64,000 bases of DNA. Source: Eledone cirrhosa (Eukaryota). The position numbers were made by a program, and so were the translations under genes. Positions 21,253 to 63,899 of this stretch are shown piece by piece. Location: assembly GCA_964016885.1 (NCBI GenBank), contig OZ024744.1, forward strand, positions 111,352,001-111,416,000, read 5' to 3'. Within the stretch, counting starts at the first letter, position 1. The number at the start of each line of letters is the position of its first letter. The notes beneath the pieces were generated by a model, which saw only the letters and a list, made by a program, of their open reading frames with translations, was not told where the DNA came from and made no database searches.

Positions 21253-24200
21253 GATATAACAGGATATTATGGATCCGAATTTCATTATTATCATTGCTGC
21301 TGAAAAAGGGACCACTTCTTTTGCAGGTGTCGCCCGAAATATCGAAACTGTTAGTCACAGAGGAGGAGATGGCAGTCTCAAGGGCCATGGTGACAAGAAG
21401 CGCCAATAGAGTCTCCCTGAAACCTCCACCCGATTTTTTCAAGGACCAGCAGCTACGGACGGTGACGTACCGCACCGTAAGCAAAATCTCACATCGGATG
21501 GAGAGAGCCACGGAGGCTCAAATCCAAAAGGCCTTGGGGTGCGTCTGGGCACGCAAAACCCACATCATCCGAGGCAGAAAGTACGCCACAGTAGACGTAC
21601 TTTTCGCCACCCCCATGAAGCGAAGTCTCACTCTCTGGAAACCCTAAAGAGTGAGGAGATAGTCTTGGTGCCCTCCTACTGCGGGCAGAAAATTGTGAGG
21701 GTCAAAGTGACCCAGGTCCCACCCGACGTGCCCATACCTTGGCTGGCCGCGTCTGTCCTTGCTAGAATCGAGAACAGGGCGACCATGCTGCAAGTAAAGA
21801 AAATAGGGAGAGAGAACTGGTCAGGTATAGGCCTGCAAATGCTTATAAAAACTGACCAGGAATGTATCGACGCTATCCCCGATATCATAGACACCGAGGA
21901 AGGACTCCAACTCCCTATAAGCGTAGAAGGAAGACGGCCAAAATGTTATCTCTGTGGGTCGAAGGGTCATCTCAGGGCCTTTTTCCCGCAGAAGACAGCG
22001 AAGAAGAAGGCCCCTCTCCTTCCAATACCTGGTCCGCTGCTACCAAGAGTAGGGCAGGCAACAAACGCAGAAGCCCCTTCCACGGTGAGTAGGAGGGCAA
22101 CGTCCGTAGCACCCGTACCGAGGCCACGGACAACTAAAGCATCATCATCAGTGGCGGCAACACCAATAGCTACATTTGAAGTAGCTACACCAGCAACAAA
22201 ATTACCGAAGAGGGCTCCACTACCACCACCAACAGCGGTGGAACACATACCCCTCCCAGACGCCACCGAATCCGACATGGAGTTTGAGGCGGGAGTGAAG
22301 TGGAAAACGGGCTTCCACAAAAAACAAAAAACAAAAAAATCCTTAGATTCACCCTCCAAAAACGAAGGCATACAAAGAGGGGTAAAGGCAGCAAGGAAAC
22401 TTGCAGCAACACCACCACCATCACCACCACAAGCACCACTGACAATAACAACCACATCACCACCAGCATCACCAAAAACACCAACAACGCAAACACAACA
22501 TGACACACACACACCAAACAGCAACAAGAAGAAAACAGCAACAAAATCCCCCCTTCCCCCAAAAAGTACACAGCCATAAACATGGCAAAAAAAGAACTCA
22601 TACAATATATAAAGCAGCACACAGACATCACAGAAAAAAACTACTACACCCCACCAACACTAAGAACTCTCCCGACAAACATAAGCATCATTGAAATCTC
22701 AATAGAACAGTACAAACCTTTAAAACAAAAATTCCCCAACGCAGTTGGAGACTTCAGAGGGTCGGTTACCAAGAGGATATACACTGACATCCTTTGGAAA
22801 CACCCATGACCAGCGAAAGGGACGGTTCTACTGTCCCTTCACCACACGATCAAGGTAAGTGACCCTTTCTCACTTGCCCCGTTTCTCATCCAACATGGCC
22901 GTACTCAGAATAGACAGTATAAATGCACGTGGCCTGGGGTCATCTTGGAAGCAGGGTCACCTGCTCAACGACCACATAGATGTGGTGGCCATCAGTGAGA
23001 CCAGAATCTCCGAAGCACAAGCCTTCGCACGGATCTTCGGCGGCTTCGATGTATACGCATCTCCCAGCCGTTCAGGATCGGGGGGAGGAGTTGTCGTCCT
23101 TTTTCGGAGAGGCTTGGATCTCGCCATACGGGCCATCTTCCTAGACCCAGAAGGTAAGTCGGTGGTGCTGGACGTGACCGGCAGCGAAGGCAATGCTTTC
23201 AGGCTAGTAGCCATCTACGCCCCAACAGGGGCAGGACGGCCAGATTTCTTCAAACGTCAAGAGACCTTTCTTGGAACGTCCCGCTCTTTAGTGTTAGTGG
23301 GCGACTGGAACGGTATCTTGGATGCACGCTGGGATTGTGTGGGGCTAGTGGATTGTGGAGGAGGGTGCAAGAGCCTCACCAACCTGCTCAGACATTTTGA
23401 ACTATCTGACAGGTATCGACTGGATCACCCGAATGTGCCAATGTGGACATGGACAAACCGCATCGGGTCATCTAGATCGTATCTTGATAGGGTATTCTGC
23501 AGAGAACTAGATAAGGCTAGTATAAGTTGTCCAAAATTTAAAATAGTCGACTACACAGACCACAAATTTTGGATCTGTGAGATCGACATAGACAGATTTC
23601 ATAGACAAGGGCCTGGTTACTAGAAGCTGAACGCGTCTTTCCCGGCGCGCAAAGCCTACAGAGACCGGATTAGCTTATTAGTTAAGCGAGCGTTGAGGGG
23701 AGCGGTCGTCAACAACAGGTGGTGATTCGCCCTGAAAAGGGCAATTAAAGTAGTGTCGATTAGGTTTAGCAAAGGAGTAGTGATAGAGGAAAATAGAGTA
23801 GAGGGAGAGCTAGTCAGAAAACTAGAAGAGGCGTTTAGGACAGGCATCGCAACCGACGTGCTTGCGGCGAGATTGGCACTCGACCAATTCTTCAACGCAG
23901 AGCATGAAGGCTGCGTTGTCAGAGCTAGAGCGCGTGCTCTGAAACGCGGGGGGGGGACAAAAGCCGTCCAATGGGCCCGGGTGGCAGAGGCGCGACGTGG
24001 CAACAAAGCCACAATTCGGTCTTTGTCTGACCAAAACGGGTGCGTGATGCTCGAACCCGAGCGGATGTGTGAAGCTTTTCAGCAGCACTTTGCTGAACTG
24101 TTCGGGAGCAGCGGCGGCCCGGATCGGGGCATGGACTTCAGTGCATACCTCGACGGACTGCCTCGGCTCTCGATGACCGCAGCACAGTGTTGCGAAAAGC

Positions 24201-26629: not shown

Positions 26630-29600
26630 TTATTGGCGACCTACGTAGTAGATCGTATCATCGTGAGCTCCGCAAAGGTTTGTTATTTTCAGTTGTTTAA
26701 AATTGCCATTTAAAGAAATTTTTTATTGTTAACTATATATAAGTGCACATACATTGATTTCTGAAAAGGACACTCAAAAATATTGGGGCCTTGAGCCGAA
26801 AGTTTAAACTTTTTATAATTATCAAACAAAAATTTTTCTTTGAAAAATCATGGATGACTCAGAGTCACTCGTTCCTCACAATCTAACACCTCACACCGAC
26901 ACCACCATTGTAAATATTGCTACGTTTGCCAACACTGGAAATGTAAGCAGTAGCAATATTTTAAATTTGTCTCAGGCAGACGTTCATTTCCCGCCATTAC
27001 CAATGACTGCAGGTGTTAAAGCCGCCACCCCACCACCACCACAGCGACAACAGAAACAAAAGAAAAAAAATAAATTAACTCGTGATATCGAAATGAATTC
27101 AACCAAAATGAACTCTTCCACACCGAACACCACTGACACCACCACCACCACAACTGAAACTAAAATTAACAATAACAAAAATAACGATAACAACAACAGC
27201 AACAATGAAATTAAGAAAACTACCCTGAGTTTTGCCAGAGTAGCAAAAACGTGCGAAGCGATCCAGGTAACTCAGGAGGAATTAGAAGAAGCCAAAGGAA
27301 TGGTAAAGAAAGATGGGTACAGAGCCAGCCTCACCCCCATCCCACCTAATAAAATGGAGCATCGTCGCCTATGCACCGTGTCTTATCGGACGATTAACAT
27401 AAAATCGCGCCGAGTGGAACGGGCATCCGAGTCCCAAATCCAAAAAGCTTTGGGACATGTGTGGGCGAAAAAACCCCACATCAGACGAAATATGGAACCG
27501 TGGACGTGTTCTTTGAAACACCACAGGAGGCCAGAGAACACTCCATGGCCCCATTATGAAGTGATGACTTCACACTCGTCCCAAACTATTGTGGCAAGAG
27601 ACTTGTGAAGATCAGGGTGACCCACGTTAACCGGCCATCGAAATTCCCTGGCTAATGGCTGCCGTCCTCGCCGGCATCGAGGCCAACACCAAGATAATCG
27701 AAATATCAAAAGAAAAGCAGGAGAACTGGTCCGGATCTGGGATGGAGCTCCTGATCCAAGCGGACCAAAAAAGCATTGAGGAGATCCCAGAGGTAATAGA
27801 CCTCACTGACGGCAGCGACCTCACCGTAATCGTCGAGGGTAGAAGGCCTAGGTGTGTCGTTTGTGGTGAAGGAACCCACCTAAGGGCTTTCTGCCCTCAG
27901 GCTAAAAAGTTGAGGCCATCTCTCTTACCCACCCCAGTGACTCAACCATCAACACCAACAGCAGCAGAAATGGCAGCAACAACTGTAGCAGCAACAACAG
28001 AAGCAACTGTAGCAGCAACAACCCCAGCAACAGTAGCAAAACCAACACCACCACCACCCAACGCGCCAGAACTAGCACCAGCGCCTACACAATCCACCAC
28101 GCCACAACCAAAACCACGCCTGTGGAGGATTTTCCACTCCCCGACCTATCGCAATTGGAGACAGATTGTGACGACGAGGAGTGGGAAACGGTATCAGGAA
28201 AAAAAAAAGAAAGAAAAAGAAGCCAAAAAAGAAAAAAATCCTCTTCCTTCCCCCTCCAAAAACAAAATACAGAGGGAAACAAATAAACTATCAAACAAAA
28301 AAAGTTAGGACAGCTATGACACCATCCACACCAGCATCAACAACCCCATCACAACAAACACCAACACCATCACCATCATTAACCCCAACACCACCATCAC
28401 CAACACCACAAAAGTCACCAAAAAGCGAAACAGAAACAAACCCACAACAAACACAAACAAAACAAAACAACCCAAACGATACACACTACACAGCATTAAA
28501 ATTGAACAACAACCAATTATTACACTACATCCAACACAACACCGGCATCACAGAAAAAGACTACACAACACCCCAAAAGTTCACACCACCTCCACACATA
28601 CAAATCACTCGCATCACACAGAAAACGTACACGACACTAAAACAAAAATTCCCCAAAGACATCGGAGACTTCCGACAAGCACTCTCCATGAGGATTTATA
28701 AGGACATCCTTCCGGAGGAGGCCACAAGCAGTGAAAAGGATGGAGAAACCATCCTTCCTCTACGAGAAGTGAGGTAAGTGGTCTTTCCCATCTTTTCCAC
28801 TCCATTTCAACATTACCTAACTCAGAATAGGCAGCATAAATGCGCGAGGCTTAGGGTCGTCATGGAAGCAGGGCCACCTGCTCAACGACCTCAGGTCACT
28901 AAACATAGATGTAGTGGCCATCAGCGAGACCAGAATCTCCGAAGCACGGGCCTTCGCACCGATCTTCGGCGACTACGATGTATACGCATCTCCCAGCCGT
29001 CATGGATCGGGGGGGGGGAGTTGCTGTGCTTTCTCAGAGAGGTTTGGATCTCGCCATACGGGCCATCTTCCTGGACCCAGAAGGTAAGTTGGTGGTTCTG
29101 GACGTGACCAGCGGAGACGGGCAAGCTTTCAGGCTAGTGGCCGTCTATGCTCGACAGGAACAGAGCGGCTTGATTTCTTCCGGCGTCTGGAGACCTTTCT
29201 TGGAACGTCCCGCTCTTTAGTGTTAGTGGGCGACTGGAACGGGATCTTAGATGCACGCTGGGACTGTGTGGGATTAGCGGATAGGGGAGGAGGGTGCAAG
29301 AGCCTCACCAACCTGCTCCGGCGTTTTGAACTGTCTGACAGGTACCGATTGGATTTCCCGAATGTGCCAATGTGGACTTGGACAAACCTCCATCGGGTCA
29401 TCCAGATCATATCTAGATAGAGTATTTTGTAGGGAAATAGAGAGGTCTAGCATAGGCTGTCCACAATTCAAGATAGTCAGCTACACGGACCACAAATTCG
29501 TGATCTGTGTGCTTGACTTAGATAGGCTTCATAGACGAGGACCTGGCTACTGGAAGCTAAACGCGTCCTTACCAGCGCGCAAGGCCTACAGAGACCGGAT

Positions 29601-32480: not shown

Positions 32481-32486
32481 CTTTAA

Positions 32487-32580
32487 ACTTTACCTTTCAT
32501 CCTTACGGGGGTCGATGAAATAAAGTACCAGTAATGCAGTGGGTAATTGCTGGCCTTGTGCCAAAAGTAGAAACAATTAT
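32487..32580 (+). mobile_element. SINE fragment, same family as 26500
   Basis: ACTTTACCTTTCATCCTTACGGGGGTCGATGAAATAAAGTACCAGTAATGCA..GGGTAATTGCTGGCCTT. Confidence 0.75.
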
Positions 32581-35543: not shown

Positions 35544-35680
35544 TTCTTCTTCTTCTTCTTCTCTTCTTCTTCTTTCTTCTTCTTCTTCTTCTTCTTCTTC
35601 TTCTTCTTCTTCTTCTTCTTCTTCTTCTTCTTCTTCTTCTTCTTCTTCTTCTTCTTCTTCTTCTTCTTCTTCTTCTTCTT
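35312..35680. repeat. Compound (TCG)n-(TCT)n microsatellite
   Basis: Direct observation. Confidence 0.95.
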
Positions 35681-37798
35681 TGCTAGCAAAGAGGTTGGCG
35701 CTTGTCGTGGGCAACCTGGTGGGAGATGCGCAGACATGTGCTATCCGTGCAGGTCCATCCACGACAACCTCCACCTCATGCGATACATCATAGAGAGGGT
35801 TGGGAACGAACCCGGCTTTGGTGGGGCCCTGATCAATTTGGATCAATCTAAGGCATTCGATAGGTCGACCATGGTTACCTGGATGCGGTGCTAGCGGCGG
35901 CAGGCTTCGGACCCGTTTTCAGGGGCTGGATCAATGCATGCACAGCAGCCGCATCTGCTCTAGGGTCAAGGTGAACGGCTACCTCTCGGAGCAGTTCGAA
36001 ATCGCGCGGTCCATCCGACAGGGGTGCCCTCTCTCCTCCCTTCTGTATGTAATGACTCTAGAGCCACTGCTGCGAAGTTGGAGTTGTTGCAGGGCATCCC
36101 GTTGGAACCGGGATTGCGGAAAGCGGTGTCAGCCTACGCCGATGACGTAACAGTAATGGTGTCGACGGCCTCGGAAATCGGGGCGATCGGCACCTTACTT
36201 GAGGAGTACGAAAGGTTTACAGGGGCTAAGCTGAACCGGGACAAGTCAGTCGCTTTGCAACTCGGCGAGTGGAGGGGCAGATCGATGCCCTCCGATGGCG
36301 TCGTCGGGCGCTGACGGAGGGCCTGGTGAAGTTGCTCGGGGTCTGGTTCGGACCAGACCTCCAGGTGGAGAAGAACTGGGGTGAGGTAACGAACAGGGTG
36401 TTTGCACTGACCCAGAAGTGGGCCGAGTGCAAACTGTCCCTGAAAGGTCGGGCGGAGGTGGCGAACACTTATATAGCGTTCGTCATCTACTACCGCCTGA
36501 CCGTTGTGCCTTGCCCAAGGGAAACGCTCGCCAAAATGGAGCGCGCACTCTTCCAATTCCTTTGGAAGAAGCGGGCTCCTATGGTGAGGAGATCCATCTG
36601 CTGTCAACACCCTTCGAAAGGAGGGCTGGGGATGCCGTGGCTAATGATACGTAAACACGCATTAAGGCTACGGCACCTTCAGGTATTCCTCTCCGGTCAA
36701 CCGGTGTGGGCCCCGTTTGTGAAGCGAGCCTTTCTCAGACTCGTCTCACTCACCGAGCTGCAATCCTGGGTCAAGCGAAGACCGAGAAAACTGGGCGCCT
36801 GGCATACCAAGTGTGCCCAGGCGCTCACGGCTCCTGGCAGGCGGACCCGGCTGTCAGTGGAGAATCCACCTCGTCATTCTATAGAGGGCTGGTGGTTAGC
36901 AGGTGCGACGACGCCCTCGGAGAAGCCCTAGGCATGGAGGAAGACGAACTGGCAAACCTGTTCGGTAGGACATTCAGCCCGGGACCCATGGATAACTTCC
37001 AGAGGTCCCTGGCCTGGCAATGCTACAGAAGGGCCCTGCCCGTTCGAGAAAGGCTCTACAGACACGGGCGCCCGGGTAGGGACCCCTCGAAAAAGATCTG
37101 TCCCAGATGCGTGTGCGACGAGGAAACCGTTGCACACGCATTGGTACACTGCTCGGGCATTGCCGATCTGTGGGGCTATGTCGAACAACTGCTGTCAAGG
37201 GTGGGACCGATCCGGTTGACCACCGAGTCTATTGTAACGATCAAGCCGCCTCCCCTCTTCAAAAACGAAGGAGAGGCGGTGTTTCTGTGCGTAATAGCCA
37301 TGGCGAAAGAGGTTATATGGTGGATGCGTCTGAAAGGACTGAGGTCAGACACCTTTCTCTCTGGCCAACAACTGGTACGTTTCTTCCGATATCATTTCGG
37401 AAGAAGGATCAGGATGGAGAGAGAGGTGCTGCACCCCAGCCGTTTTTATGAAAGATGGGTGAAAGTGACGAGAATGGCCCGTGTGAATGGGCCTTCACTA
37501 TACATCAGACTATAGGTGAGGAAGATGAAAGACCAAGGGAGCACCCCTTCTCTGTGCTCCCGAGGAAAAGGGTTGCACACTTTTTTTCGGGGGTGTGTGC
37601 GACCCCCCAAGGCGCCTCCTCTCTATTGAGGATTTTGTTATAAATTTTATTCTGTTATATTTTATTTTATTTTTATATTTTGTTATTGCCTCCGCCTTAT
37701 TGAGGACGCCTTGTTTTGTAAACTCCCCCCATTGTACTTGTCCCACTTTTGATGCCCTGGTGGCAAATAAAAGAAACATATCTATCTATCTATCTATA

Positions 37799-37831: not shown

Positions 37832-37834
37832 CTC
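35681..37834 (+). mobile_element. Tx1/L1-clade element T3, 5'-truncated within RT
   Basis: Begins LAKRLALVV directly after (TCT)n; ORF2 ends 37515; AATAAA followed by (CTAT)n tail. Confidence 0.92.
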
Positions 37835-38284
37835 TTGGTAGCTGGACGCACACAATTTCACTGGTATGTTTCTGTCAATTTATTTACAAAAAAGAGAAAT
37901 TCTTGTTTACAAAACTCGTTGTTTTGTAGATTAACCCCCAGGCTGAATTGTCAGCTGGCTGGTAATCTCATTTTTCGCCCCCACTGGGGAGGAAATTTAA
38001 TTTGAGAAAACATTTCAAACATTTCAGACATTTAATATTTTTGCTATTGATAATGACTAGCTTAGTAAATGCAACGCTACCGAACGCTGACGAAGAGAGT
38101 AGAGACTTCTGCCTACATAGGCGTCACTATGGAGACAAATAGTGACAACAAAATTTTGTTTTGCCCAGAAGCCGAAAAATGCAACTTACAAGATGGACCA
38201 CACAGCTTACAACAGACATCAAAAACCATAAAAACTGAAACAATAGACACAACTACAAACGGAAAAACCGACAACCACAACAAC

Positions 38285-38318
<34 letters not shown>

Positions 38319-41300
38319 AATAACTTATACAGAAACAGTCACAAATAATAATAACGTTACCTCTAACTCCGCATGTATTGGCGTCACCATGGAAACCAAT
38401 ATGGACAACAAAAATAAAAACAAGATCGAACCACTCATAGTACAACAGACGGAAAAAACAACAGAAAATAAAATCATTGACACAACTACAAACGGAAAAA
38501 CCGACAACCACAACAACAACAACAACATCAAAAAAACTTTTGCGCAAACAGTCATCAAGACACAAGAATTCAAGGATCTCGATATCTCCAATGCGAAACA
38601 GATGCTCTCTGAAGCAAAGGAATTTATCACTTTCGGTGAAAACGGTGGATTTCAGATAAACTCACCCCCAGAAATTCGTTTGGAAACATTTCGAAGGACA
38701 ATTACCTTCAGAAATGTTTCAAATGAAACAAAACGACCAACATTCCTCAGTCAAGGGAAAATTGAGACAACCTTGAAAGAGATATTGCCAGACATTGATT
38801 TTATGCAGAGGGCCAAACAGTACGGTACTCCTCAAAAGCGAGGCCCTTGCACAAAGATATTCAGTGACGCCAATATTGTCACAAAAATACACCTTTTTCC
38901 CTACATACCTGGGAAAAAGGACACAAGAAATTAGAGTTTCAAACATACCACCAAATATTAATATTTGGTGGATATTGGCAGGATTTTTAGAGGCGAGAAA
39001 ATACACTATTATCTCCATCAAAAGTCAACCAGACACACCCGGTCTGGTACAAATTTGGCGATTCTGGTGCAAATGAGCCCGGAAAGAATCTCCAAAATAC
39101 CAGAAAAAGTGCTGGTGGACAACAACAGCCACATAAACATTTCGGTGGAGGGACGAAAATCACATTGCTTTCGTTGCAATAGCACCACACACCTAAAGGC
39201 CTTCTGCCCTTTACAACACGCTCAACCAAAACAATACATAAGAAAAACTGTTACCAACACCAACACCAAAACAACCACCACCACAACAACAACAACTCAC
39301 GAAAGAAGCAAACACACCAAAACAAACAGCCACACAACCAACAACAACTGAAAAAACACAGCAACGCGCCTAAGAACACAGCCCCACCCATCCCACTCCA
39401 TCAAACACTACCACAAACACACACACCGAAACACCACCACCACACAACATACCCCTACCCCACACTCCTGACGATGATAATTCATCGACGGATGAAGCTG
39501 CTTCTCCTTCTTTAAGTGGAAAAGAGGGAGAGCCGCGGAAATCTAAAAAACAAAAAAAAGAGATACCACAAAACCCCCAAAACTCCAATCACAAACACCA
39601 ACACACAACCACAGAAACAAACAACAACACAAACAACATCACAGTCAAACATCCCCCTACCAGCAAAACCAACACCAACACCACCCCAAACACAACCACC
39701 CACCATAAAAAGCAAACTCCCGGATGAACAACAAACTAAAACAACACAACAAAAACACAAACAACAATACGCATACATCAACTCAAACAACAAGAGTTTG
39801 ATGGAGGTCATCTCCCAAAACCCCAAGGTGGAGACGGAGGGCAAAACTTTCGTCAAGGCAGAATCGTCTCCACACCTTAAACTTATAAGGGTTTCTATGG
39901 AAACCTATAAAGACCTAAAAATTAAATTTTCACAGAACGTGGGCAACCCCTGCCACAAACCCATCAACCGCGTTCTGTTGAAAGGTTTCCCCACCCCACC
40001 CAACACCCCATCCAGCACCCAAATGGAGATTGAACAACCTGATCTCCAGGAAACGAAAAGGTAAGTGCACCTTTCGTCCTTTTTCTCCAACTTTTCTTCA
40101 CCAACATGGCTGGTTTACGAGTTGGAGCCGTGAATGTGCGTGGCCTAGGGATGCCCTGGAAACAGGGCAACTTTTAAACGACCTTAGGTCACACAGTATA
40201 GATGTGATAGCCATTATCGAGTCCAGGATCCACAACAGGCAGCAACTAACCCCCATTTTCGACGACTTTGAGATCTACGCATCTCTCTGTCAGCCAGGAG
40301 GTGGAGGTGGAGTGGCTGTTATGTTTCGGAAGAACCTGGACGTCGGAGTACAGCAAGTACACTTGGACCCGGAGGTTAGACTGGTAGTCCTAGACGTGAA
40401 CAGTATCGGAGGTGGAGCCTTCAGACTGGTGGCCGTTTATGCCCCGACCGGGCAATCGCAATCACGGCCAGACTTCTTTAAGCGTCTAGAGTCTTTTCTG
40501 GGAACGTCTCGCTCCTTACTTTTAGTGGGGGACTGGAATGGTATCCTAGATGCACGATGGGACTATGTGGGAGCATGTCCCAGTAGAGCGGGGTGCAACA
40601 GCCTCAAAACTTTAATCGGCCAATTCCAACTGGCCGATAGGTATCGACTGGATTTCCCGACTGCACCACAGTGGACGTGGGTAAACCGCAGTGGGACATC
40701 TAGATCGTATTTAGATAGGTTCTTCATTAGAGAAAGGGACAAGGAGATGTTAAGCTGAACACGAATGCACATGGTTGACTATTCAGATCACAAGTTAGTC
40801 GTCTGCTTAGTCAACCGTGATAGAATACATAGACAAGGACCCGGATACTGGAAGCTGAACGTGTTGTTGCCGGCACGTAAAGCTTACAGTGAACGGATAA
40901 GTAGACTAGTCAAGCAACAGTTAACGGGAGCCATCGTCAACAATAAATGGTGGTACTCTCTCAAGAAAGCAATTAGAATAGAATCGATAGGGTATAGCAG
41001 AGAGTTAGCCTTAGAGAAAAACAGAATAGAAAGAGAACTAGTAGCCAAGGTAGAGGAGGCACTTAGAAGTGTCAACCCGGCTAGAGTGTTAGCGTCGAGA
41101 ACGGCACTGGACCAGTTTTTCGATGCGAAACACGAAGGCTGCGTGGTCAGAAGCAAAACACGTGCTCTAGGAAACGAAGGAGCGAAAGCTGTCAGCTGGG
41201 CCCGAGTGGCGGAGGCAAAAAGTGGCAACAAGTCCACGATTCGGTCTTTGAAAGACCAAAACTTTGCGCGACTGTTTGAGCAGAACGACGGTGAGCTGAA

Positions 41301-43755: not shown

Positions 43756-46700
43756 GGGATGGACACATGTGTTAAACTTGCTCGGTAAGTTTTGTTTAAA
43801 TTTCCTTAGAAATTCGTCATTGTGAACTTTTATTTTTAGACCAATTTGTAGCGGGACTGGCAGGCCAAATTTAGATCTGGTCAGTCCCCCAAAATATCGT
43901 GCCCCTCAGAGCAAAAACACCCATATTTCCGAAAACATTTTTACAAAACACTTCATTTTTAAAAAAATGGCCGAAGCAAAGGCACCTACTTCTTTGTCAA
44001 AACAAGAAGATGGGAAGGGAAAGCCATGCCTACTTGACCAGCAGGTAGTAGCAGACATGGACAAAGGAATGCCAACATCATCGCCTCAACATTTAGAAGA
44101 GGAACAAGCTTCAGCTGCTTGTAAGCAACTGAACACGCCTGACGTCACAAACGTCACATGTATCCACACACAGAAGGAAATATATGTAGCAAATACTTCT
44201 TTTCGTAAAGAACTCGAAATCCACACAACAAAAAATGGAAATAACAGCCCACAACAGATACCAAAAAACTATAGAAAATGAAAAAATTGAAAACACATCC
44301 AACAACACCAATCAAAAGGAAAATAATGTCAATACAAACACCAAAGAAAATACAAACAACAGTGACAACAACAACAAGAAAGACAACAACAGCAAAATTT
44401 CTTTTGCTGATACTGTAAAAAAACCGGAAATATTTCAACTTTTGGATTTAACGAACGCGAAACAAAAGTTGGAAGATGCTAAACAATGTGACTTTTGGAC
44501 CCAATGGGTCATTTAGCATAAATTCACCACAAGAACTAAGGAGAGAAAATGCCCTGAACACGGTGGTTTTCAGGACAATCTCAAATGCATAAACAAAACC
44601 AGCTCAACTATCTCAGAGTGAGATTGAGCTGGTTTTAAGGAACCACATGGATAACATTTTATTCATTCAGAAAGCCAAACTTTTCGGCAGCACCTCGGTG
44701 CTGATGAAAGACAAAATAACAGCACAAAAATATTCTATCGCGCCCATTGTGTCCACCCATTTTACATTTTTCCCTACATACATAGGAAAAAGGACGCAAA
44801 AAATAAAAAAATTACATGCATAAGACCCAAAGTAGATATTTGGTGGATACTTTATGGCCTAATTGGCTTTGAACAAGACATTTTGATCTCAGTAGGAAAA
44901 TCCTCCAGAGATATATTTAGTGGGACTAGCGTCGGAATTCTGGTGCAGATGAGCCCAGAACATATAATGAAAATCCCACAAAGAGTACCTCTGGATAGAC
45001 AGACCTACATAAACATTTCCGTTGAGGGTAGGCGGCCCGATTGTTACCACTGCGCAAGCAGAGGTCACCTAAGGGCTGCCTGTCCTCAATTGACAAAAAA
45101 AAACCACTTTTAACCACAAATAACAACACAACCACCACCACCACCACAACAACAACAAAAACAACAAGAAAAAACAACACAGAACACTATCCCACCCAAC
45201 CCCTCTCCACCCAAAACAAATACAAAAACACACACAGACACTACAGAACCCCAAAACATACCCCTACCCATCAACACGGATGAGGAACCTCTATCGACGG
45301 CACCCAGCGGCGATGAGGAGGACCCCTTCCAACCCGCGAAAAGAAAAAAAAGAAAGCACCGCATGAACAAAAACGGAACAAACACACAAACAGCACAAAA
45401 ATCACAAACAAAAGTTCCCCCTCCCGAAAACAAAACACCCACAACAAAGAGAAAACACACGCAGGGACCACAGACAAAAACAAACACAACACAGGAAAAG
45501 TACACATACACTTACATAAACGAAGAAAATAGAACTCTGATGGAGACCATCAAAACAACCCTTTGGTCAAAACCGAAAGGAAAACTTTGGATAGCGTCAA
45601 CAAAAACAAAAAAACGAACCTAAAACTGATCAGGGTCCCTATAGGAACTTATAGGTCCCTAAAAGAAAGAAACATTTGAAGAGGACGTGGCGAATTCCTG
45701 CGTGAAGCTAATCAACCGCGTCCTCTTCAAAGGTCTCCCCACCCCAATCACCCCCAACCCACCAGACACCCCCTTCCCACCAAACACCTCCGTCTCCACC
45801 CCACCAGAAACCACCACCCCACCAAACATACACTCCAACACCCCATAGAAATTGTGCAGCCTGGTCCCCAGGAGACGAAGAGGTGAGTGATTTTTTTTCC
45901 TCTTCTTTTAACTTTTCAGCACCAACATGGTCAATATAAGAGTTGGATGTGTGAATGTACGCGGCCTGGGGATGCCCTGGAAACAGGGCAAACTCTTAAA
46001 CGATCTCAGGTCGCACAGTATAGATGTAGTAGCCATTTGCGAGTCCAGGATCCACAGCGAGCGACAACTGGTCCCCATCTTCGGCGACTTGGAGATCTAC
46101 GCATCTCTCTGTCAGCCGGGAGGTGGGGGCGGGGTTGCTGTTTTGTTGCGGAAACACCTGGACCTCGTAACACAGGCGGTACATCTGGACCCAGAGGGTC
46201 GACTGGTGGTCCTAGACGTTGACGGTAGTGAAGGTGGAGCCTTCAGGCTGGTGGCCACATATGCCCCATCCGGGACCACGCGGCCAGACTTCTTCAAACG
46301 TCTAGAGACTTTTCTGGGAACGTCCCGCTCCTTGCTTTTAGTGGGGAACTGGAATGGAATTCTAGATGCACGTTGGGACTATGTGGGAGCATGTCCCGAT
46401 AAAGGGGTGTGTAACAGCCTCAAACAGTTAATCGGCCGATTTGACCTGGCCGATAGATATCGACTAGATTTTCCGACTGTGCCACTGTGGACGTGGACAA
46501 ATCTCAGCGGAACATCTAGATCGTACCTAGATATGGTTCTAATTAGAAAGAAGGATAGGGACATGTTAAGCTGTCCACAAATGTTCATGGTTGCCTATTC
46601 AGATCACAAATTAGTGACCTGCTTAGTCAACCTTGACAAAACTCATAGACAGGGACACGGCTACTGGAAGCTGAACTTGTCGTTATCGACATGCAAAGCC

Positions 46701-49223
46701 TATAGTAGACGAATTAGCACTTTAATTAAGCAGCTCCTGACGGGGGCCATTGTCAACAACAGATGGTGGTACTCTCTCAAGAGGGCAGTTAGATTAGACT
46801 CGATAGGTTTTAGTAAAGAATTAGTGTCAGATAGAAATAAGATCGAAAAGGAACTTGTAGATAACGTAGAAGAGGCACTTAGGAGTGGCAACATAGCCAG
46901 CGTGCTAGCGACGAGAACGGCCTTGGACCAGTTCTTCGACGCAAAGCATGAAGACTACGTTGTCAGAAGCAAAATACGTGCTCTGGGAAACGAGGGAGCC
47001 AAAGCTGTTAGCTGGGCCCGAGTGACGGAGGCGAAAAGTGGCACGATTCAGTCTTTGAAGGACCAAGACGGACGCGTGATACGTGAGCCGAAGTAGATGT
47101 GCGCGGCCTTTCAGCGGCACTTTGCTCAACTGTTCGGGTAGGGCGGCGCGCCGGGAGGGGCTATGGATTTCGGTCCATGCCTCGACGGCCTACCGCGACT
47201 CTCGGAGAATAAGGGGGATGACATAGGCAACTTCCGGCCCATAACTCTGCTAAACACAGAGTTACAGATTTTGGCCAAGGTGTTGGCAAAGAGGCTGGCG
47301 CTTGTCGTCGAGAACCTGGTGGGAGAAGCGCAGACATGCGCAATGTCGACCAGGTCCATACACGACAACCTCCACCTCATGCGATACATCATAGGGCTCT
47401 GATCAATTTGGATCAGTCTAAGGCTTTCGATAGGGTTGACCATCGTTACCTTGATGCGGTGCTCGAGGTGGCAGGCTTCGGACCCGTGTTCAGGGGTTGG
47501 ATTGCTGGAATACACAGCAGCAACATCTGCTCAAGGGTCAAAGTGAACGGCTACCTCTCGGAGCCGTTCCATATCACGCGATCCATTCGACAGGGATGCC
47601 CTCTCTCCTCCCTTCTGTACGAACTGACTCTCGAGCCACTACTGCGGAGGATGGAGCTATTGCAGGGCTTCCCTTTGGAACCAGGACTGCGGAAAGCGGC
47701 GTCGGCCTACGCCGACGACGCAACAGTAACGGTGTCAAGTACCTCGCAAATCGGGGAGGTCGGCACCTTACTGAAGAAATACGAAAGGTTCACAGGAGCG
47801 AAGCTGAACCGGGACAAATCCGCCGGTTTGCAACTCGGAACGAGGAGAGGCAAACCGATGCCTTCCGATGGCGTCGTCGGACGCTGGACGGAAGGACCGG
47901 TAAAGCTGCTCGGGGTCTGGTTTGGTCCGGACCTCCAGGTGGAGAAGAACTGGAACGAGGTGACTGCCAAGGTGTTTGCGCTCATCCAGAAGTGGGCCGA
48001 GTGCAAACTGTCCTTGAAAGGTCGAGCAGAGGTAGCGAACACTTTTATAGCGTCCGTCATCTACTACTGCTTGGCCGTCGTGCCTTGTCCAGCCAAAACG
48101 CTCACCAAAATGGAGCGCGCGCTCTTCCAATTCCTGAGGATGCCGTGGCTGACGATGCGCAAACACGCGCTCAGGCTGCGGCACCTCCATGTATTCCTCA
48201 CCGGCGAACCGGTGTGGTCCCCGTTCGTGAGGCGAGCCTTCCCACGACTGTTCTCGCTGACCGAGCTGCAGTCGTGGGTCAAGCAAAGACCGAGGAAAAT
48301 GGGCGACTGGCACATCGAATGTGCTCAGGCGCTCACAGTCCTCTGGCAGGCGGATCCGGCGATCAGTGGAGACTCCACTTCGTCATTCTATAGTGGAATG
48401 GTCCGCAGCAAGTGCGACGACGCGCTCGGAAAAACTCTAGGCGTAGAGGAAGACGAACTGGCCAGTCTGTTCGGTAGAACCTTCCGCCCGGGACCGATGG
48501 ACAACTCCCAAAAGTCCCTGGCCTGGCTGTGCTACCGAAGAGCTCTACCAGTTCGAGACAAGCTCTACAGACAGATCTGTCCGAGATGAGTGCACGACGA
48601 GGAAACCGTCGCGCACGCATTTGTACACTGCCCGGGCGTTACCGACCTGTGGGGCTATGTAGAACGTCTATTGTCGCGGGTGGGACCAATCCAGTTGACC
48701 ACCGAGTTCATTGTCATGATCAGCCCGCCACCCTCCTTCAAAAACGAAGGAGAGGCGGTTTTCCTATGTGTTATGGCTATGGTGAAAGAGGTTATATGGT
48801 GGACGAGGTTAAAAGGTCTGAGGTCAGACACCTTTCTCTCCGGCGAACAACTGATTCGTTTTTTCAAATATCATTTTGGAAGAAGAATCAGGATGGAGAG
48901 AGAAGTGCTGTACCCCAGCAAGTTTTATAAAAGGTGGGTGAATGTGGCAAAGATGGCCCGAGTGGTTGGGCCTTCTCTCTACATAAGCCTTTAGGCTGAG
49001 GAAAAAGAGAAGAAAGGAGGGGAGTACTCACTCTTGGTGCTCCTGGAGATGAGGGTTGTACAGTTTTTCGAGGTGTGTACAACCCCTGTGTAACGCCTCC
49101 ACCCTATTGGGGATTTCAATTGTTATTTGTTATTTTATTAATAGTTTTATTTTCATATACCTATATGTAAACTCCCCATTTGTATTTGTCCTCTTCTTTT
49201 GTGCCGTTGTGGCTAATAAATAA

Positions 49224-49286
<63 letters not shown>
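43756..49286 (+). mobile_element. Tx1/L1-clade element T5, full span with internal deletions
   Basis: ORF1 43967-45886 (CYHCASRGHLRAAC); ORF2 45927-48994; long (CTAT)n tail 49223-49286. Confidence 0.92.
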
Positions 49287-49288
<2 letters not shown>

Positions 49289-50975
49289 CGGTGGGGCTCT
49301 GATCAACTTGGATCAGTCTAAGACATTCGATAGGGTCGACCATCGAGACTTGGAAGCGGTTCTCAAGGCAGCCGGTTTCGGTCCCGTGTTCAGAGGATGG
49401 ATCGAGGCGATGCACACCAGCATCTGCTCGAGGGTCAACGTGAACGGCTACCTATCGGAGCCATTCGCAATCACGCGTTCCATTCGACAGGGTTGCCCTC
49501 TCTCCTCCATTCTGTATGTATTGACTCTAGAGCCACTACTGCGGAAATTGGAGCTGTTGCAGGGCTTCCCTCTAGAACCGGGACTGCGCAAAGCGGCGTC
49601 GGCTTATGCCGACGACATAACGGTAATGGTGTCGAGCACCTCGGAAATCGGGGTGATCGGCAACTTACTGAAATAATACGAAACGCTGACGGGAGGAAAA
49701 CTAAACCCGGACAAGTCTGTCGGTTTGAAACTTGGTACGTGGAGAGGCAAACCGATGACGTCCGACAGCGTCGTTGGACGCTGGACGGACGGACCGGTGA
49801 AATTGCTCGGGGTCTGGTTCGGTCCAGACCTCCAGGTGGAGAAAAACTGGAACGAGGTCACGGCCAAGGTGTTTGCACTCACCCAGAAGTGGGCAGAGTG
49901 CAAACTGTCCTTGAAAGGTCGAGCGGAGGTGGCGAATACTTTCATAGCGTCCGTCATCTACTACTGCTTGACTATCGTGCCTTGTCCCCGTGAACACCTC
50001 GCCAAGATGGAACGCATGCTCTTCCAGTTTCTGTGGAAGAAGCAGGCTCCGCTGGTGAGGAGGTCCGTCTGCTGTCAGCACCCTTCCAATGGAGGGCTGG
50101 GAATGCCGTGGCTGATGATGCGCAAACATACGCTGAGGCTGCGGCATCTCCAGGTATTCCTCACCGACCCCCAACCGGTGTGGGCACCGTTTGTGAGACA
50201 GGCTTTCCCACAGCTCGTCTCACTGACGGATCTGCAGGCATGGATCAAGGAAAGACCGAAAACGATGGGCGCCTGGCACATTGAATGCACTCAGGCGCTC
50301 ACAGTCCTCTGGCAAGCGGGCGCAGCAATCAGTGGAGACTCCACTTCGACATTCTATAGAGGGATTGTACGTTATAAGGGCGACGACATGCTCGGAGAGA
50401 GTCTGGGCGTCGAAGAGGATGAGCTCACCAGTCTATTTGGTAGGACTTTCCGCCCGGATAACTTTCCGCTATGGACAACTTCCAGAGGTCCCTGGCCTGG
50501 CAGTGCTACCGAGGAGCTCTATCGGTTCGTGACAAGATCTACAGGCACGGACGCCCCGGCAGGGATCCTTCCAAGAGGACGTGTCCAAGGTGCGCGCAGG
50601 ACATTGAAACAGTCCTGCACGCAATTGTACACTGCCCGGGCGCAACTGACCTGTGGAACTATGCAGAACAACTGCTGTCGCGTATGGGACAAATCCAGTT
50701 GACTGCCGAGTCCATAGTAAGGATCAAACCGCCAGCCTCTTTCAAAAACGAAAGAGAGGCGGTTTTCCTCTGTACGGTGGCTATGGTGAAAGAAGTTATA
50801 TGGTGGACGAGGTTAAGAGGACTGAGGACAGATGCCTTTCTCTCCGGATAACAATTGATTCCCTTCTTTAAGTATCACTTTAGAAGGAGAATCAGGGTGG
50901 AGAGAGAGGCACTGCACCCCAGTAAATTTACTGAAAGGTGGGTGAATGAAGCGAAAATGGCCCGAGTGATTGGGC

Positions 50976-58068: not shown

Positions 58069-61000
58069 TCTGGCTTTACTTGAGACGTGTGCCAGTTCGC
58101 TGGTAAGTTTTTGTTGATTTTCTAAGTAAGAAATCCAAAATTTATTGTTAAATTTATTACTATTTTATAGCTTGACCCCACGTCTGGATTTTCAGACGGT
58201 GGGTCAAGTCATCTTCACCCCTCCCTGGGGTGAAATTTTCGTTTTGAAAAAAATTTCGCCGATGAAAAAAAAAAAAGTGTAAACAAACCTTGCGTTCATA
58301 ACTAGAAGTGGTGGAGAGGCGGTAAGAGTGTTAAGCTCGCAGTCACCTCCTCTCACCACCTCATTGAAAGACGTCGAAAATGTCGTCAGTTTTAAAAACA
58401 CGATGTCGGACGTTGATTGTAACATCAACACTAACACAAATACCAATAACATACAAAATATAAGCAACACCAACCAGAACAACAACAACAACAACAACAA
58501 TAATGACAACAAGAACAACAACAGCAACAATGATAACAACAACACCACCACCAACAACAACAACGATGATAACAACAACACCACCAACAACAGCAGCAAC
58601 ACGAACAACTCCACGAACAAGGAAAAGATTTCTTTTGCTCAAACCGTCCAAAAGACGGAACTGTTCACATACCTTGACATTTCCAAGGCTAGGGAAATGT
58701 TAAGCGATGCAAAACAGTATGTAACTTTTGGTGAGAGTGGTGCTTTCAGCATCACTTCTCCTCAACAGTTACGCAGAGAAACTGTTCTGAAAACAGTAAT
58801 TTTTAGAACGGTTTCAAATGTGTCGAAAAAACCAGTTCAGTTATCCCAAAACGATATTGAACTGGTTCTGAAGAATTCCATGAAAGATGTTGCCTTCATC
58901 CAAAAAGGGAAACTTTTTGAAAGCATTTCGGTATTGTTGAAAGACCAATTGACAGCACAAAAATATTCTGTATCGCCGATTGTGTCCCCCCTTTACACCT
59001 TTTCCCCCACATATATGGGAAAAAGAACTAAAAAAATAAAAATTTCGAACATTGCACCAAATGTAAACGTCTGGTGGATTTTAACTGGCTTCATCGATTT
59101 CGACGAAGACACCATCATTTCGGTGGGAAAGTCCTCCAGAGGCACATTCAATGGTACAAGTTTGGAAGTTCTGGTCCAAATGAGGCCAGAACGGATAGCT
59201 AAAATACCCCCAACGTGTGCCTCTGGATGGAATTTCACACATAAACATTTCTGTTGAGGGTAGGCGGCCTTCATGTTACCACTGTTTAAGCAGTGGTCAC
59301 CTGAAGGCTTACTGTCCTCAGTTAACTAAAAAAAAAAGAGGCACTACTGCCAACAACACAACCACCACCACCACCACCACCACCACCACCACCACAACAA
59401 CAACAACAACAACACCACGCAAACACAACCAAAAAAAGAACAACAAACCAACCTGCAAGCACAGTCCCACCCAACCCCACTCCACCTAAAACCACTGCAA
59501 AAACACCCACAAACACAACAGCTCCCCAAAACATACCCCTTCCAAATAACACACACCACAACGGACGAGGCCCCCACATCATCACCAAGTGATGATGAGG
59601 GAGAGCCTCTCCGTTCGAAAAGAAAGAAGAAAAGACACCACAAGAACAAAAAAACAACAAACATCACTACAAACATACAACCACCAACACAAACAACACA
59701 AACATTACAAACAAAAACCCCCCGTCCCGAAAACAAAACCACGACATCACTCCAAACACAAACACCTACAACAAAACGAAAGCTCCCACAAGAACAACAG
59801 ACAAAAACCACCGCAACACAAGTACATTACACATACATAAACAGTAAAAACAAAACTTTAATGGAGGTCTCCTCCAACGACCCTTCGGTGAAAACCGAAG
59901 GGAAAACTTTTTCGAACTGTGTAGACAAACCTAATTTAAAGATGATTAGGGTCCCTTCGGACACCTATAAGTCTTTAAAGGAAAACTTTCCTAAGGACGT
60001 GGGTAATCCTTGTGTTAAACCCATTAACCGCGTCCTTTTAAAACGTTTCCCCACCCTCACCCCAGACACCCCCACCCCACCAAACATCTCCGTCCACACC
60101 CCGCCGGAAACCACCACCCACCCAGACAACTCCTCTAACACCCCCATGGAAACCGTGCGGCCTGATCCCCGGGAGACGAAGAGGTGAGTGTTTTCTTCTC
60201 CTCTTTTAACTTTTCAGAACCAACATGGTCAATATAAGAGTTGGATGTGTGAATGTACGCGGCCTGGGGTGCCCTGGAAACAGGGCAAACTCTTAAACGA
60301 CCTCAGGTTGCACAGAATGGATATAGTAGCCATTTGCGAGTCCAGGATCCACAGCGAGCGACAGCTAGCCCCATCTTCGATGACTTTGAGATCTACGCAT
60401 CTCTCTGTCAGCCGGGGGTGGGGGCGGAGTTGCCGTTTTGCTGCGGAAACACCTGAGCCTCGTAACACAGACGGTACATCTGGACCCGAAAGGTCGACTG
60501 GTGGTCGTAGACGTTGACGGTAGTGAAGGTGGAGCCTTCAGGCTGGTGGCCGCATATGTCCCATCCGGGACACCGCGGCCAGACTTCTTCAAACGTCTAG
60601 AGACTTTTCTGGGAACGTCCCGCTCCTTGCTTTTAGTGGGGGACTGGAATGGAATCCTAGATGCACGATGGGACTATGTGGGAGCATGTCCCGATAAAGG
60701 GGGCTGTAACATCCCCAAACAGTTAATCGGCCGATTTAACCTGGCCGATAGATATCGACTAGATTTTCCGACTGTGCCACTGTGGACGTGGACTAATTTT
60801 AGCGGTACATCTAGATCGTACCTAGATAGGGTTCTAGTTAGAAATAAGGATAGGGACATGTTAAGCTGTCCACAAATGTTCATGGTTGCCTATTCAGATC
60901 ACAAACTAGTGACCTGCATGGTCAACCTTGATAGAACCCATAGACAAAGACCCGGCTACTGGCAGCTGAACTTGTCGTTACCGACATGCAAAGCATACAG

Positions 61001-63899
61001 TAGACGGATTAGCACTTTAGTTAAACAGCACTTGACAGGGGCCATTGTCAACAACAGATGGTGGTACTCTCTCAAGAGGGCAGTTAGATTAGACTCATTA
61101 GTTTTTAGTAAAGAATTAGCGTTAGTTAGAAATAGAACCGAGAAAGAACTGGTAGATAAAGTAGAAGAGGCAATTAGAAGTAGCAACGTAGCCAGCGTGC
61201 TAGCAACGAGAACGGCCTTGGACCAGTTCTTCGACGCAAAGCATGAGGGCTGCAAAATACGTGCTCTGGGAAACGAGGGAGCCAAAGCTGTTAGCTGGGT
61301 CCGAGTGATAGAGGCATAAAGTGGCAACAAGTCCACGATTCGGTCTTTGAAGGACCAAAACGGACGCGTGATACGTGAGCCGAAGCAAATGTGTGCGGCC
61401 TTTCAGCGGCACTTTGCTCAGCTGATCGGGCAGGGCGGCGCGCTGGGAGGGGCTATGGATTTCGGTCCATACCTCGACGCCTACCGCGGCTCTCGGACAG
61501 CGAGGCAAAGTTCTGCGAAGAGCCGATTTCAGCCGCTGAGTTAGGGGACGCGCTGAGCCAATGCGGCAAACGCAAATCTCCAGGTCTCGACGGTCTACCC
61601 TACGAATTTTACGTAGCAATGCCGGACTTATTCTCCGGTCTCCTGGAAGCGGTCTACTGCAACTGGCAACAGAACGGGAGAATTCTCAGTTCTGTGACCG
61701 GGGGCGTAGTCACACTAGTCAGGAAGGACGAGAATAAGGGGGATGACATAGGCAACTTCCGGCCCATAACTCTGCTAAACACAGAGTTACAGATTTTGGC
61801 CAAGGTGTTGGCAAAGAGGCTGGCGCTTGTCGTCGAGAACCTGGTGGGAGAAGCGCAGACATGCGCAATCCCGACCAGGTCCATACACAACAACCTCCAT
61901 CTCATGAGATACATCATAGCGAGGGTAGGGTGTAAACCCGGCTTCGGTGGGGCCCTGATCAACTTGGATCAGTCTAAGGCTTTCGATAGGGTTGACCATC
62001 GTTACCTGGATGCGGTGCTCGAGGCGGCAGGCTTCGGACCCGTGTTCAGGGGCTGGATTGCTGCAATGCATAACCAACATCTGCTCAAGGGTTAAGGTGA
62101 ACGGCTACCTCTCGGAGCCGTTCCATATCACGCGATCCATTCGACAGGGATGCCCTCTCTCCTCCCTTCTGTACGTATTGACTCTCGAGCCACTAGTGCG
62201 GAAGTTGGAGCTATTGCAGGACATCCCTCTGGAACCGGGACTGCGGAAAGTGGCGTCGGCCTACGCCGACGACGTGACAGTAATGGTGTCGAGCGTCTCG
62301 CAAATCGAGGAAGTCGGCACCTTACTGAAGGAATACGAAAGGTTCACAGGAGCGAAGCTGAACCGGGAAAAGTCCATCGGTTTGCAACTCGGATTCTGGA
62401 GAGGCAAACCGATGCCTTCCGATGGCGTCGTCGGACGCTGGACGGAAGGACCAGTAAAGCTGCTCGGGGTCTGGTTTGGTCCGGACCTCCAAGTGGAGAA
62501 GAACTGGAACGAGGTGTCGGCCACGTGTTTGCACTCACCCAGAAGTGGGCCGAGTGCAAACTATCCTTGAAAGGTCGAGCCGAGGTGGCGAACACTTTTA
62601 TAGCGTCCGCCATCTACTACCGCTTGACCGTCGGGCCTTGTCCAGCCAAAACGCTCGCCAAAATGGAGCGCGCGCTCTTCCAATTCCTTTGAAAGAGGCG
62701 GGCTCCTTTGGTGAGAAGATCCATCGGCTGCCAACGCCCTTCCAACGGAGTGCTGGGGATGCCGTGGCTGGCGATGCGCAAACACGCGCTCAGGCTGCGG
62801 CATCTCTACGTATTCCTCACCGGACAACCGATGTGGGCCCCGTTCGTGAGGCGAGCCTTCCCACAACTCGTCTCGCTGACCGAGCTGCAGTCCTGGGTCA
62901 AGCAAAGACCGAGGAAAATGGGCGACTGGCACATCGAATGTGCTCAGGCGCTCACAGCCCTCTGGCAGGCGGACCCGGCAATCAGTGGAGACTCTACTTC
63001 GTCATTCTATAGTGGGTTGATCCGCAGCAAGTGCGACGACGCGCTCGGAGAAACTCTAGGCGTAGAGGAAGACGAACTGGCCAGTCTGTTCGGTAGGACC
63101 TTCCGCCCGGGACCGATGGACAACCTCCAAAAGTCCCTGGCCTGGCAGTGCTACTGCGGAGCTCTACCAGTTCGAGATAAGCCCTACAGACATGGGCGCC
63201 CGGGCAGGGACCCTGCAAAAAAGATCTGTCTGAGGTGCGTGCGAGACGAAGAAACCGTCGCGCACGCATTCGTACACTGCCCGGGCGTCACCCACCTGTG
63301 GGGCTATGTAAAACGACTATTGTCGCGGGTGGGACCAATCCGGTTGACCACCGAGTCCATTGTCATGATCAAACCGCCACTCTCCTTCAAAAACGAAGGA
63401 GAGGTGGTTTTCCTTTGTGTGATAGCTATGGCGAAAGAGGTTGTATGGTGGACAAGGTTAAAAGGGCTGAGGTCAGACACCTTTCTCTCCGGCCAACAAC
63501 TGGTTCTTTTTTCAAATACCACTTTGGAAGAAGAATCAGGATGGAGAGAGAGATGCTGTACCTCAGCAAGTTTTATGAAAGGTGGGTGAAAGTGGCGAGA
63601 ATGGCTCGAGTGAATGGGCCTTCTCTCTATATCAGCCTCTAGGTTGAGGAAAAGGAGGAAGAGAGGAAAGGAGTACAAACTCTTCGTACTCCTGGAGATG
63701 AGGGTTGCACATTTTTTTTCGGGGGTATGTGTTACCCATATAAACTGTCTCCCTCTATTGGGGAAAATCGACTAACTTTTTAAATTCCATTTGTGATAAC
63801 ATTTTACACGTTTTTATTGTATGTAAACTTCCCCCTTTGTATTTGTCCCCTTCTTTTGTGCCCCTGTGGCTAATAAAGAAATATATATATCTATCTATC
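58069..63899 (+). mobile_element. Tx1/L1-clade element T8, full length, T5-like
   Basis: ORF1 ~58403-60187 (CYHCLSSGHLKAYC); ORF2 60225-63642, frameshifted; AATAAA at ~63872, then ATCTATCTATC. Confidence 0.93.

Follow-up and report, generated by a model that had tools for sequence, protein, structure and literature searches.

We describe, in a 64,000-nt window of the Eledone cirrhosa genome (contig OZ024744.1, positions 111,352,001 to 111,416,000, forward strand; coordinates below are those of the window), a head-to-tail array of long interspersed elements (LINEs) with two open reading frames (ORFs), T1 to T8, whose lineage carries two splice-like signals: a donor sequence at the boundary of ORF1 and ORF2 (D2), and a short GT..AG segment, bounded by D1 and A1, in the 5′ untranslated region (UTR). 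Both motifs are conserved, D2 is kept independently of the reading frame, and searches covering thousands of genomic copies found none that was spliced. To judge from the alignments, D2 is a 5′ splice-site sequence selected at the nucleotide level, and the conserved layout of splice signals in this octopod LINE lineage is real and apparently undescribed. Whether the elements would make a copia-like spliced ORF1 RNA, with a D2 acceptor that is not fixed on the ORF2 stop, and retrotranspose only the unspliced RNA, we regard as evenly poised. Just short of an even prospect, in our estimation, is a fully gene-like exon layout, with an intron in the 5′ UTR, ORF1 as an internal exon, ORF2 within a second intron, two RNA pools, programmed splicing as the switch between ORF1 protein (ORF1p) and ORF2p, and copying restricted to unspliced RNA.

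The donor sequence at the end of ORF1

Sixty longer stretches were retrieved from the searched genome (G000, 3.0 Gb), and an alignment was made of 41 copies, which fall into 10 family groups with 67-96% identity. The motif GTRAGT (R, A or G), mostly as AG|GTRAGT with the bar marking the exon-intron boundary, lay 28-45 nt upstream of ORF2 in 13 of 13 sampled family groups, namely the 10 aligned ones and G7, F6c, and F6d. Between the end of ORF1 and the 3′ end of the element, D2 was the sole G|GTRAG column present in all 10 aligned groups. Shuffles of the surrounding 70 nt put the chance of the nine-letter motif at 5e-5 to 1.3e-3 per copy. D2 was intact at 28 of 30 T8-family loci, was retained where 23 nt at the end of ORF1 had been duplicated, and varied only between A and G at position +3; positions -2 and -1 were mostly AG, with CG in T2b and AA in some F6c and F6d copies, these having been chosen as non-canonical matches. 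Within the window, the first-pass annotation had placed AG|GTAAGT donors at 22855, 28774, and 40061 and AG|GTGAGT donors at 45883 and 60184, and all five are found there. The eight element ends amount to only about five lineages, as T4, T6, and T7 are 96% identical and T5 and T8 are ~90% identical. The donors, together with the spacer between the two ORFs of T8, are as follows:

22853..22860, plus strand: D2 of T1, AG|GTAAGT, phase 1, with the stop TGA at 22860-22862
28772..28779, plus strand: D2 of T2, AG|GTAAGT, phase 2
40059..40066, plus strand: D2 of T4, AG|GTAAGT, phase 2
45881..45888, plus strand: D2 of T5, AG|GTGAGT, phase 2
60182..60189, plus strand: D2 of T8, AG|GTGAGT, phase 2, overlapping TGA
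60190..60224, plus strand: inter-ORF spacer of T8, pyrimidine-rich (68-79% C+T in all families)

With the frame set by the conserved C-terminal domain of ORF1, D2 was in phase 2 in T2, T4, T5, T5a, and T8, in phase 1 in T1, F6, and X, and in phase 0 in G7 and F6c, in which ORF1 continues for 9-15 codons beyond the donor. Since D2 is kept in all three phases, it is not a by-product of an ORF1 stop read as Arg-stop. T1 had been assigned to phase 2 with a frameshift correction and is actually in phase 1 (G|GT AAG TGA, encoding QGK before the stop). The placement of the donor on the ORF1 stop thus holds for part of the lineage, and gives way outside the window, where the phase 0 families read through the donor. 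Inheritance of an Arg-stop or Gly-Lys-stop codon pair by shared descent, free of selection, could be imagined from the fact that all families form one clade, but we give it next to no weight: the flanks are unalignable among family groups, the phase has changed at least twice, and of 156 columns of fourfold sites in ORF2, no more than 30 are invariant. The phase 0 families have no stop at the motif, and this phase independence largely refutes it. Separately, four family X copies (L065, L067, L069, and L086) carry a further tandem duplication, of 76 nt, where ORF1 ends, and this shifts the donor phase.

The position of the motif also invites a different function, as an element for translation re-initiation or an internal promoter, composed of GTRAGT, the pyrimidine tract, and CAAC-ATG. 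Its fixed site 28-45 nt before the ORF2 ATG and the conserved pyrimidine spacer are compatible with such a role, and a passage of PMC5860796 describes a conserved 5′ UTR donor of human L1 as being retained as part of a RUNX3 site. Nevertheless, the motif fits the U1 consensus exactly, its one variation, A/G at +3, being tolerated by U1, and another donor turns up repeatedly in 5′ UTRs that cannot be aligned, making this account very unlikely. A micro-intron running from D2 to an AG in the spacer (34-37 nt, with an in-frame ORF1-ORF2 fusion in T5 and T8) was rejected, because the spacers of T1, T2, T4, and X are without AG; it is present in those of T5, T8, T5a, and F6.

For an outgroup, 80 metagenome L1/Tx1-like loci were gathered, of which 38 combined an endonuclease motif with a frame of 900 residues or more; 34 of these 38 had an ORF1, some being near-duplicates. 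None of the 34 outgroup ORF1 stops lay inside AG|GTRAGT. The C-terminal residues of two ORF1 relatives (P0126 and P0124) are compatible with the same donor, at the protein level only. A third relative, P0127 (XP_036364761.1, Octopus sinensis), has an end resembling the ORF2 N-terminus, without a translated pyrimidine spacer, and this end may be a gene-model artefact, a decayed copy, or a short splice. We also observed a second perfect AG|GTAAGT ~310 nt past D2, in endonuclease codons, in the T1 and T2 groups only (23154 and 29084 in the window).

Candidate acceptors and the 5′ UTR segment

The first-pass annotation had proposed that ORF2 is an exactly delimited intron, running from the ORF1 stop to an acceptor on the ORF2 stop, TAG. 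TAG does close all eight ORF2s in the window. Across families it is not the general ORF2 end: aligned T2y and T2b copies ended in TAA in 11 of 12 cases and in TGA in one, and TAA was found in all of the first 100 listed of 4,721 such ORF2 ends. T2y is the youngest family, with intact 1152-codon frames, 2,452 copies with D2, and TAA as its ORF2 end. TAG served as the ORF2 stop in 8 of 10 groups, mostly as TAG|G; purine-rich sequence comes next, and AATAAA lies ~230 nt on. This is unremarkable because 26 of 55 synonymous third positions are equally biased to G; specifically, of 55 invariant Lys, Glu, or Gln codons, 26 had G in eight or more of the ten groups and 15 had it in all ten. The CCTTC pyrimidine tract said to precede the TAG averaged 7.0 pyrimidines in 12, lower than several other conserved YAG columns (Y, C or T), of which ORF2 holds about 20 that are shared by all 10 groups; several of these are preceded by more pyrimidines than the stop (9.1 and 8.2 in 12). 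Additionally, another AG lies at -7 upstream of the stop in several families. When stop contexts are tabulated over families, as the annotation had suggested, GTRAGT is kept and TAG is not, beyond chance. The acceptor side of the exact intron therefore fails, TAG having disappeared from the most active family and being conserved no better than the synonymous background, and a conserved 3′ splice site on the ORF2 stop, beyond coding constraint, is not supported by the alignment. Two candidate sites in T8 are:

63640..63642, plus strand: TAG stop of T8 ORF2, the acceptor first proposed; TAA or TGA in T2y and T2b
63555..63566, plus strand: alternative candidate acceptor, a YAG ~76 nt before the ORF2 stop, shared by all 10 groups, those with TAA among them; ~20 columns are of this kind

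The same proposal described the product as an ORF1-only mRNA. The proposed intron would take the ORF1 stop with it, so a spliced product would gain a tail, of between 1 and 90 extra residues. Splicing from stop to stop would give ORF1 tails of 1-3 residues in T1, F6, F6c, G7, and T5a and of 28-90 residues in T2w, T4, T5, T8, and X. We dismissed the idea that donor phase varies together with a stop directly behind the TAG, as short tails occurred in 5 of 10 groups against 4.0 expected (P=0.36).

As a special case within the copia-like reading, applying to the families with TAG, the stop-to-stop intron is decidedly unlikely. The sequence context of the TAG and the very short tails in five groups speak in its favour, and TAG is rare among closed outgroup ORF2s (4 of 36). 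Against this stand the T2y and T2b elements, which end in TAA yet keep the donor, as well as the synonymous comparison, the long tails in the other five groups with the unremarkable count of short ones, the upstream AG at -7, and the predicted junction sequences, which matched the genome at one unrelated site only.

The 5′ UTR segment is absent from the first-pass annotation and is newly noticed here. It consists of a further donor, AT-rich sequence, and an AG, and occurs near the element 5′ end in most families. Its representatives in the window are:

58103..58170, plus strand: D1-A1 of T8, 68 nt, CTG|GTAAGT...TTTTATAG|C, 33 nt from the element 5′ end; putatively spliced
43785..43851, plus strand: 5′ UTR segment of T5, 67 nt, GT..AG, with a second AG at 55 nt
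37864..37929, plus strand: 5′ UTR segment of T4, 66 nt, GT..AG, with a GTATGT donor
26678..26743, plus strand: 5′ UTR segment of T2, 66 nt, GT..AG, with an AAG|GTTTGT donor and AAG acceptor

Counted from the donor, the distance to the end of the AG was 66-68 nt for six of the eight types (shuffle p 0.10-0.15 each) and 58-68 nt for all eight (shuffle p 0.33-0.45 each). Placement of D1 varied from +13 to +64 across the 8 types, and the interior of the segment was 64-83% AT. BLAST between the 5′ UTRs linked only T2w with T2y, T4 with L216, T5 with L218, and the F6 types to each other, the rest being unalignable. Host myosin introns, with boundaries estimated by homology, shared these donor types, AAG|GTTTGT among them; one such intron was 85 nt long. 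From these features the D1-A1 segment is likely a short 5′ UTR intron, and as such better supported than the D2 intron; it gives ORF1 the look of an internal exon. In a separate observation, the 5′ UTR and ORF1 have been exchanged among families (L211, L271, and L272 versus L203-L212; also L270, L269, and L216). The exchanged types have ORF2 regions that are 96% alike and unrelated 5′ UTRs and ORF1 N-termini, and each 5′ UTR comes with its own donor and 66-68-nt segment.

Possible spliced RNA or U1 binding, and known systems

The greater abundance of LINE ORF1p than ORF2p is mainly ascribed to inefficient re-initiation on one bicistronic RNA. The copia-like reading would instead have two RNA pools, one spliced, encoding ORF1p and without a translatable ORF2, and the other fully unspliced, which would yield ORF2p and be the sole template for retrotransposition. 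U1 would bind and the short 5′ UTR intron be spliced, and use of D2 would be coupled to removal of that first intron, a coupling that would explain why no genomic copy derives from RNA lacking intron 1. For the D2 acceptor, one option is a site near the 3′ end that differs between families, either the YAG ~76 nt upstream or, in families that have it, the stop TAG; another is a site deeper within ORF2. The presumed purpose would be to yield more ORF1p than ORF2p, in the manner of copia, BARE1, and EVD. The division into spliced ORF1 RNA and unspliced template, already suggested in the first-pass annotation, survives, helped by the frame independence of D2 and by the 5′ UTR segment, and the acceptor on the ORF2 stop does not.

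Several results weigh against this reading, among them the searches for spliced genomic copies. These were pattern counts, which pick up whatever non-canonical sequence follows the exon and miss diverged copies. No D2-spliced copy was found for the T4, T5, and T8 types (35 non-canonical matches versus 567 canonical copies and 7,437 ORF2 ends; 30 matches were examined as loci and 5 judged from five listed letters), for T2y (7 non-canonical matches versus 2,452 copies), or for F6 (8 non-canonical matches). Processed copies lacking exactly ORF2, which the exact intron had been expected to leave, were thus absent from the pattern searches of T4/T5/T8, T2y, and F6. Likewise, no D1-spliced copy was present in T8 (one match, a 1-nt deletion; 282 candidates), in the T2 types (18 matches versus 3,346 5′ ends; 7 were examined as loci and the rest had the same 1-nt deletion), or in F6 (0 matches, from an uncounted denominator). 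All genomic copies found were unspliced at both D1 and D2. This absence speaks against abundant spliced RNA, because the 3′ UTR hairpins would be kept and reaching the junction needs only 240-310 nt of reverse transcription. The lack of ORF2-less copies bearing the 3′ UTR hence argues either that there is no very abundant spliced RNA or that cis preference is strict. Similarly, no genomic copy lacking the 5′ UTR segment was found, so that RNA without intron 1 goes uncopied. It may be that splicing hardly occurs, or that RNAs spliced at intron 1 also lose ORF2 via D2 and cannot be copied in cis. This zero compares with the ~2% of SpIREs (spliced integrated retrotransposed elements) given for human L1 in part of PMC5860796.

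The signals themselves raise further objections. No conserved D2 acceptor stands out in the alignment, and in two of the 34 outgroup loci (L100 and L137) a GTRAGT without the AG sits on the ORF1 stop or immediately ahead of it. In the 5′ UTR, T1 was without a donor in 6 copies, the T2- and F6-type acceptors are AAG, and the D1 donors of some types are weak (GTTTGT, GTTCGT, and GTATGT). The length window and some of the D1 donors were chosen after the data had been seen, and the 5′ UTRs may share descent.

Several candidate products were tried and discarded. The junction sequences predicted by the first-pass annotation, used as genomic probes, gave one match (L031), which is unrelated and due to chance rather than a splice junction. 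At least 14 copies in which the exon is followed by CCCGA belong to a subfamily with a duplicated ORF1 end and were rejected as splice products, and a splice from D1 to the spacer, giving an ORF2-only RNA, had no matching genomic copy. Among proteins, two word-based ORF1 searches for spliced forms gave no match, and none of the 9 proteins from a profile search had a matchable 3′ UTR-derived tail. Four read sets (contigs of unrecorded kind, from at most two samples of one study) showed depth rising steeply to the 3′ end like genomic 5′-truncated copies; 15 of 251 joints were listed, 0 of those listed matched D2 or D1, and these contigs behave like DNA and are uninformative on splicing.

The main alternative, which we think unlikely, is that U1 small nuclear ribonucleoprotein binds both donors and splicing seldom follows. 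D1 would then stimulate an internal promoter and block premature polyadenylation in the A-rich ORF1, and D2 would sustain transcription into ORF2 or serve RNA localisation. Such binding would account for every zero in the processed-copy searches and for the lack of a conserved D2 acceptor, and the ORF1 regions do contain 1-5 AATAAA. Moreover, a U1 role independent of splicing, coexisting with splicing, is described for EVD in part of PMC5580714. Against it, ORF2, the stretch that D2 would protect, has only 0-1 AATAAA (6 copies), and the fixed donor-to-AG distance in the 5′ UTR is left unaccounted for.

The copia-like reading has parallels in other retrotransposons. Drosophila copia makes a spliced gag RNA, as described in a passage of PMC5580714; its donor likewise lies at the end of the structural ORF, its intron covers the whole enzyme region, and its genomic copies keep the intron. 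Copia, however, is a long terminal repeat (LTR) element with one ORF and a demonstrated splice, whereas the present elements are two-ORF and non-LTR, with a predicted splice and an additional short 5′ UTR intron-like segment. For the short GAG RNA (shGAG) of the Arabidopsis Ty1/Copia element EVD, the same source, in the part consulted, reports a conserved strong donor and a weaker acceptor, with U1 both splicing and blocking premature termination, and PMC3735527 reports separate RNA pools for translation and replication in barley BARE1. A conserved strong donor and a weaker acceptor would be shared with these elements, and split RNA pools (predicted here) with BARE1. The EVD intron is a short one in the protease region and is coupled to early termination, which is not predicted for the present ORF2, nearly without AATAAA. 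Within the L1 clade, human L1 splicing (SpIREs and SpORF2) removes the 5′ UTR or ORF1, according to portions of PMC5860796 and PMC2896524, and the former describes SpIREs as ~2% of full-length L1s and L1 splicing as harmful. Human L1 is alike in having a conserved donor near the 5′ end, and differs in its ~2% of spliced copies, where none were found here, and in that the best-conserved donor here is at the ORF1 end.

By holding on to its donors across frame changes and exchanges of the 5′ UTR, this LINE lineage would exemplify splicing or U1 binding as part of a life cycle, converging on copia, BARE, and EVD. It would also raise the question of how the unspliced RNA is chosen so strictly that 0 of >3,000 full-length copies lack the 66-nt intron. 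Kibi and Koshi, LINEs that we take to belong to Tx1, offer a comparison in target choice. Both are APE (apurinic/apyrimidinic endonuclease)-type and insert into microsatellites (PMC3812793, in part), as do the present elements, which lie in (TATC)n, (ATT)n, and tandem arrays; the passage in question mentions no splice signals, and the comparison is by description. The main text of two octopus papers (PMC13282606 and PMC9115989) contains neither 'splic' nor 'intron'. Our literature search, with Repbase, subscription papers, and supplements outside its scope, found no description of such a splice layout in a LINE. Tamura, Kajikawa, and Okada (2007; PMID 17174483) reportedly treat functional splice sites within a zebrafish LINE, to judge by the title.

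The array and other elements in the window

The array runs from ~21.4 kb to the end of the window, its eight two-ORF copies lying in (ATT)n and (TATC)n tracts:

~21400-26460, plus strand: T1, tandem LINE copy
26634-32460, plus strand: T2, tandem LINE copy
~35680-37780, plus strand: T3, tandem LINE copy
37832-43740, plus strand: T4, tandem LINE copy
43755-49225, plus strand: T5, tandem LINE copy
49286-57155, plus strand: T6, tandem LINE copy
57297-58030, plus strand: T7, tandem LINE copy
58070..63880, plus strand: T8, full-length, degenerate two-ORF L1/Tx1-type LINE in (TATC)n, eighth and last of the array
58283..60187, plus strand: T8 ORF1, frameshifted near 59257-59330, its conserved C-terminal domain setting the frame
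60225..63642, plus strand: T8 ORF2, with APE endonuclease, reverse transcriptase (RT), and zf-RVT, and several frameshifts in this copy
63643..63880, plus strand: T8 3′ UTR, with a purine-rich start, hairpins with compensatory changes, and AATAAA at 63872

Judged by domains and ends, the array copies are microsatellite-targeting L1/Tx1-type non-LTR retrotransposons, with APE, RT, and a zinc-binding domain in ORF2 and no LTRs. In ORF2, PF03372 and PF00078 scored above the cut-off and PF13966 (E 8.6e-6) just under it, and young families have intact ORF2 frames of 1150-1152 codons. ORF1 matches to zf-CCHC were under the Pfam cut-off (E 0.0024 and 0.072, in the T5 and T1 copies), and C-x2-C-x4-H-x4-C is readable in intact ORF1s. 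Elements end in AATAAA followed by a (TATC)n or (ATT)n tail and are frequently 5′ truncated (7,437 3′ ends versus 567 ORF1 ends); the 3′ UTR hairpins had compensatory changes at 5 of 11 pairs, as expected of a LINE tail. The closest named relatives were in Argonauta hians for ORF2 (60% identity) and in Octopus sinensis and O. bimaculoides for ORF1. A quick tree, built without a named Tx1 reference, placed the families of this genome in one clade with P0001-P0004, of which P0003 is from Argonauta hians, and scans of viral and prokaryote contigs found no relatives.

Two target preferences occur within the one clade, T1, T2, and F6 lying in (ATT)n and T3-T8 in (TATC)n. At 26460-26630 and 32460-32580, the (ATT)n of T1 and T2 is next to a small extra piece, presumably similar to a short interspersed element (SINE-like). 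F6 likewise forms head-to-tail arrays, with at least 7 full-length copies at ~5.84-kb spacing (G000:C1:423365266-423400550; L253).

Finally, other elements were found in and beside the array. An LTR element at 50976-56493, with minus-strand gag/pol-like ORFs at 52308-55794, interrupts T6 at a point 24 nt short of the ORF2 stop, where GGGC is duplicated; its LTRs are ~690 nt long and 95% alike, and its coding region is split over several frames. Positions 21076-21253 hold a piece of a related LTR in inverted orientation, and an insertion of ~400 nt within the T6 3′ UTR (56659-57050) is possibly a solo LTR. Upstream of the array, an inverted 2.6-kb duplication (8468-11083 and 11996-14564, 96% alike) has RT and GIY-YIG-like frames, motifs by which we take it to be Penelope-like.

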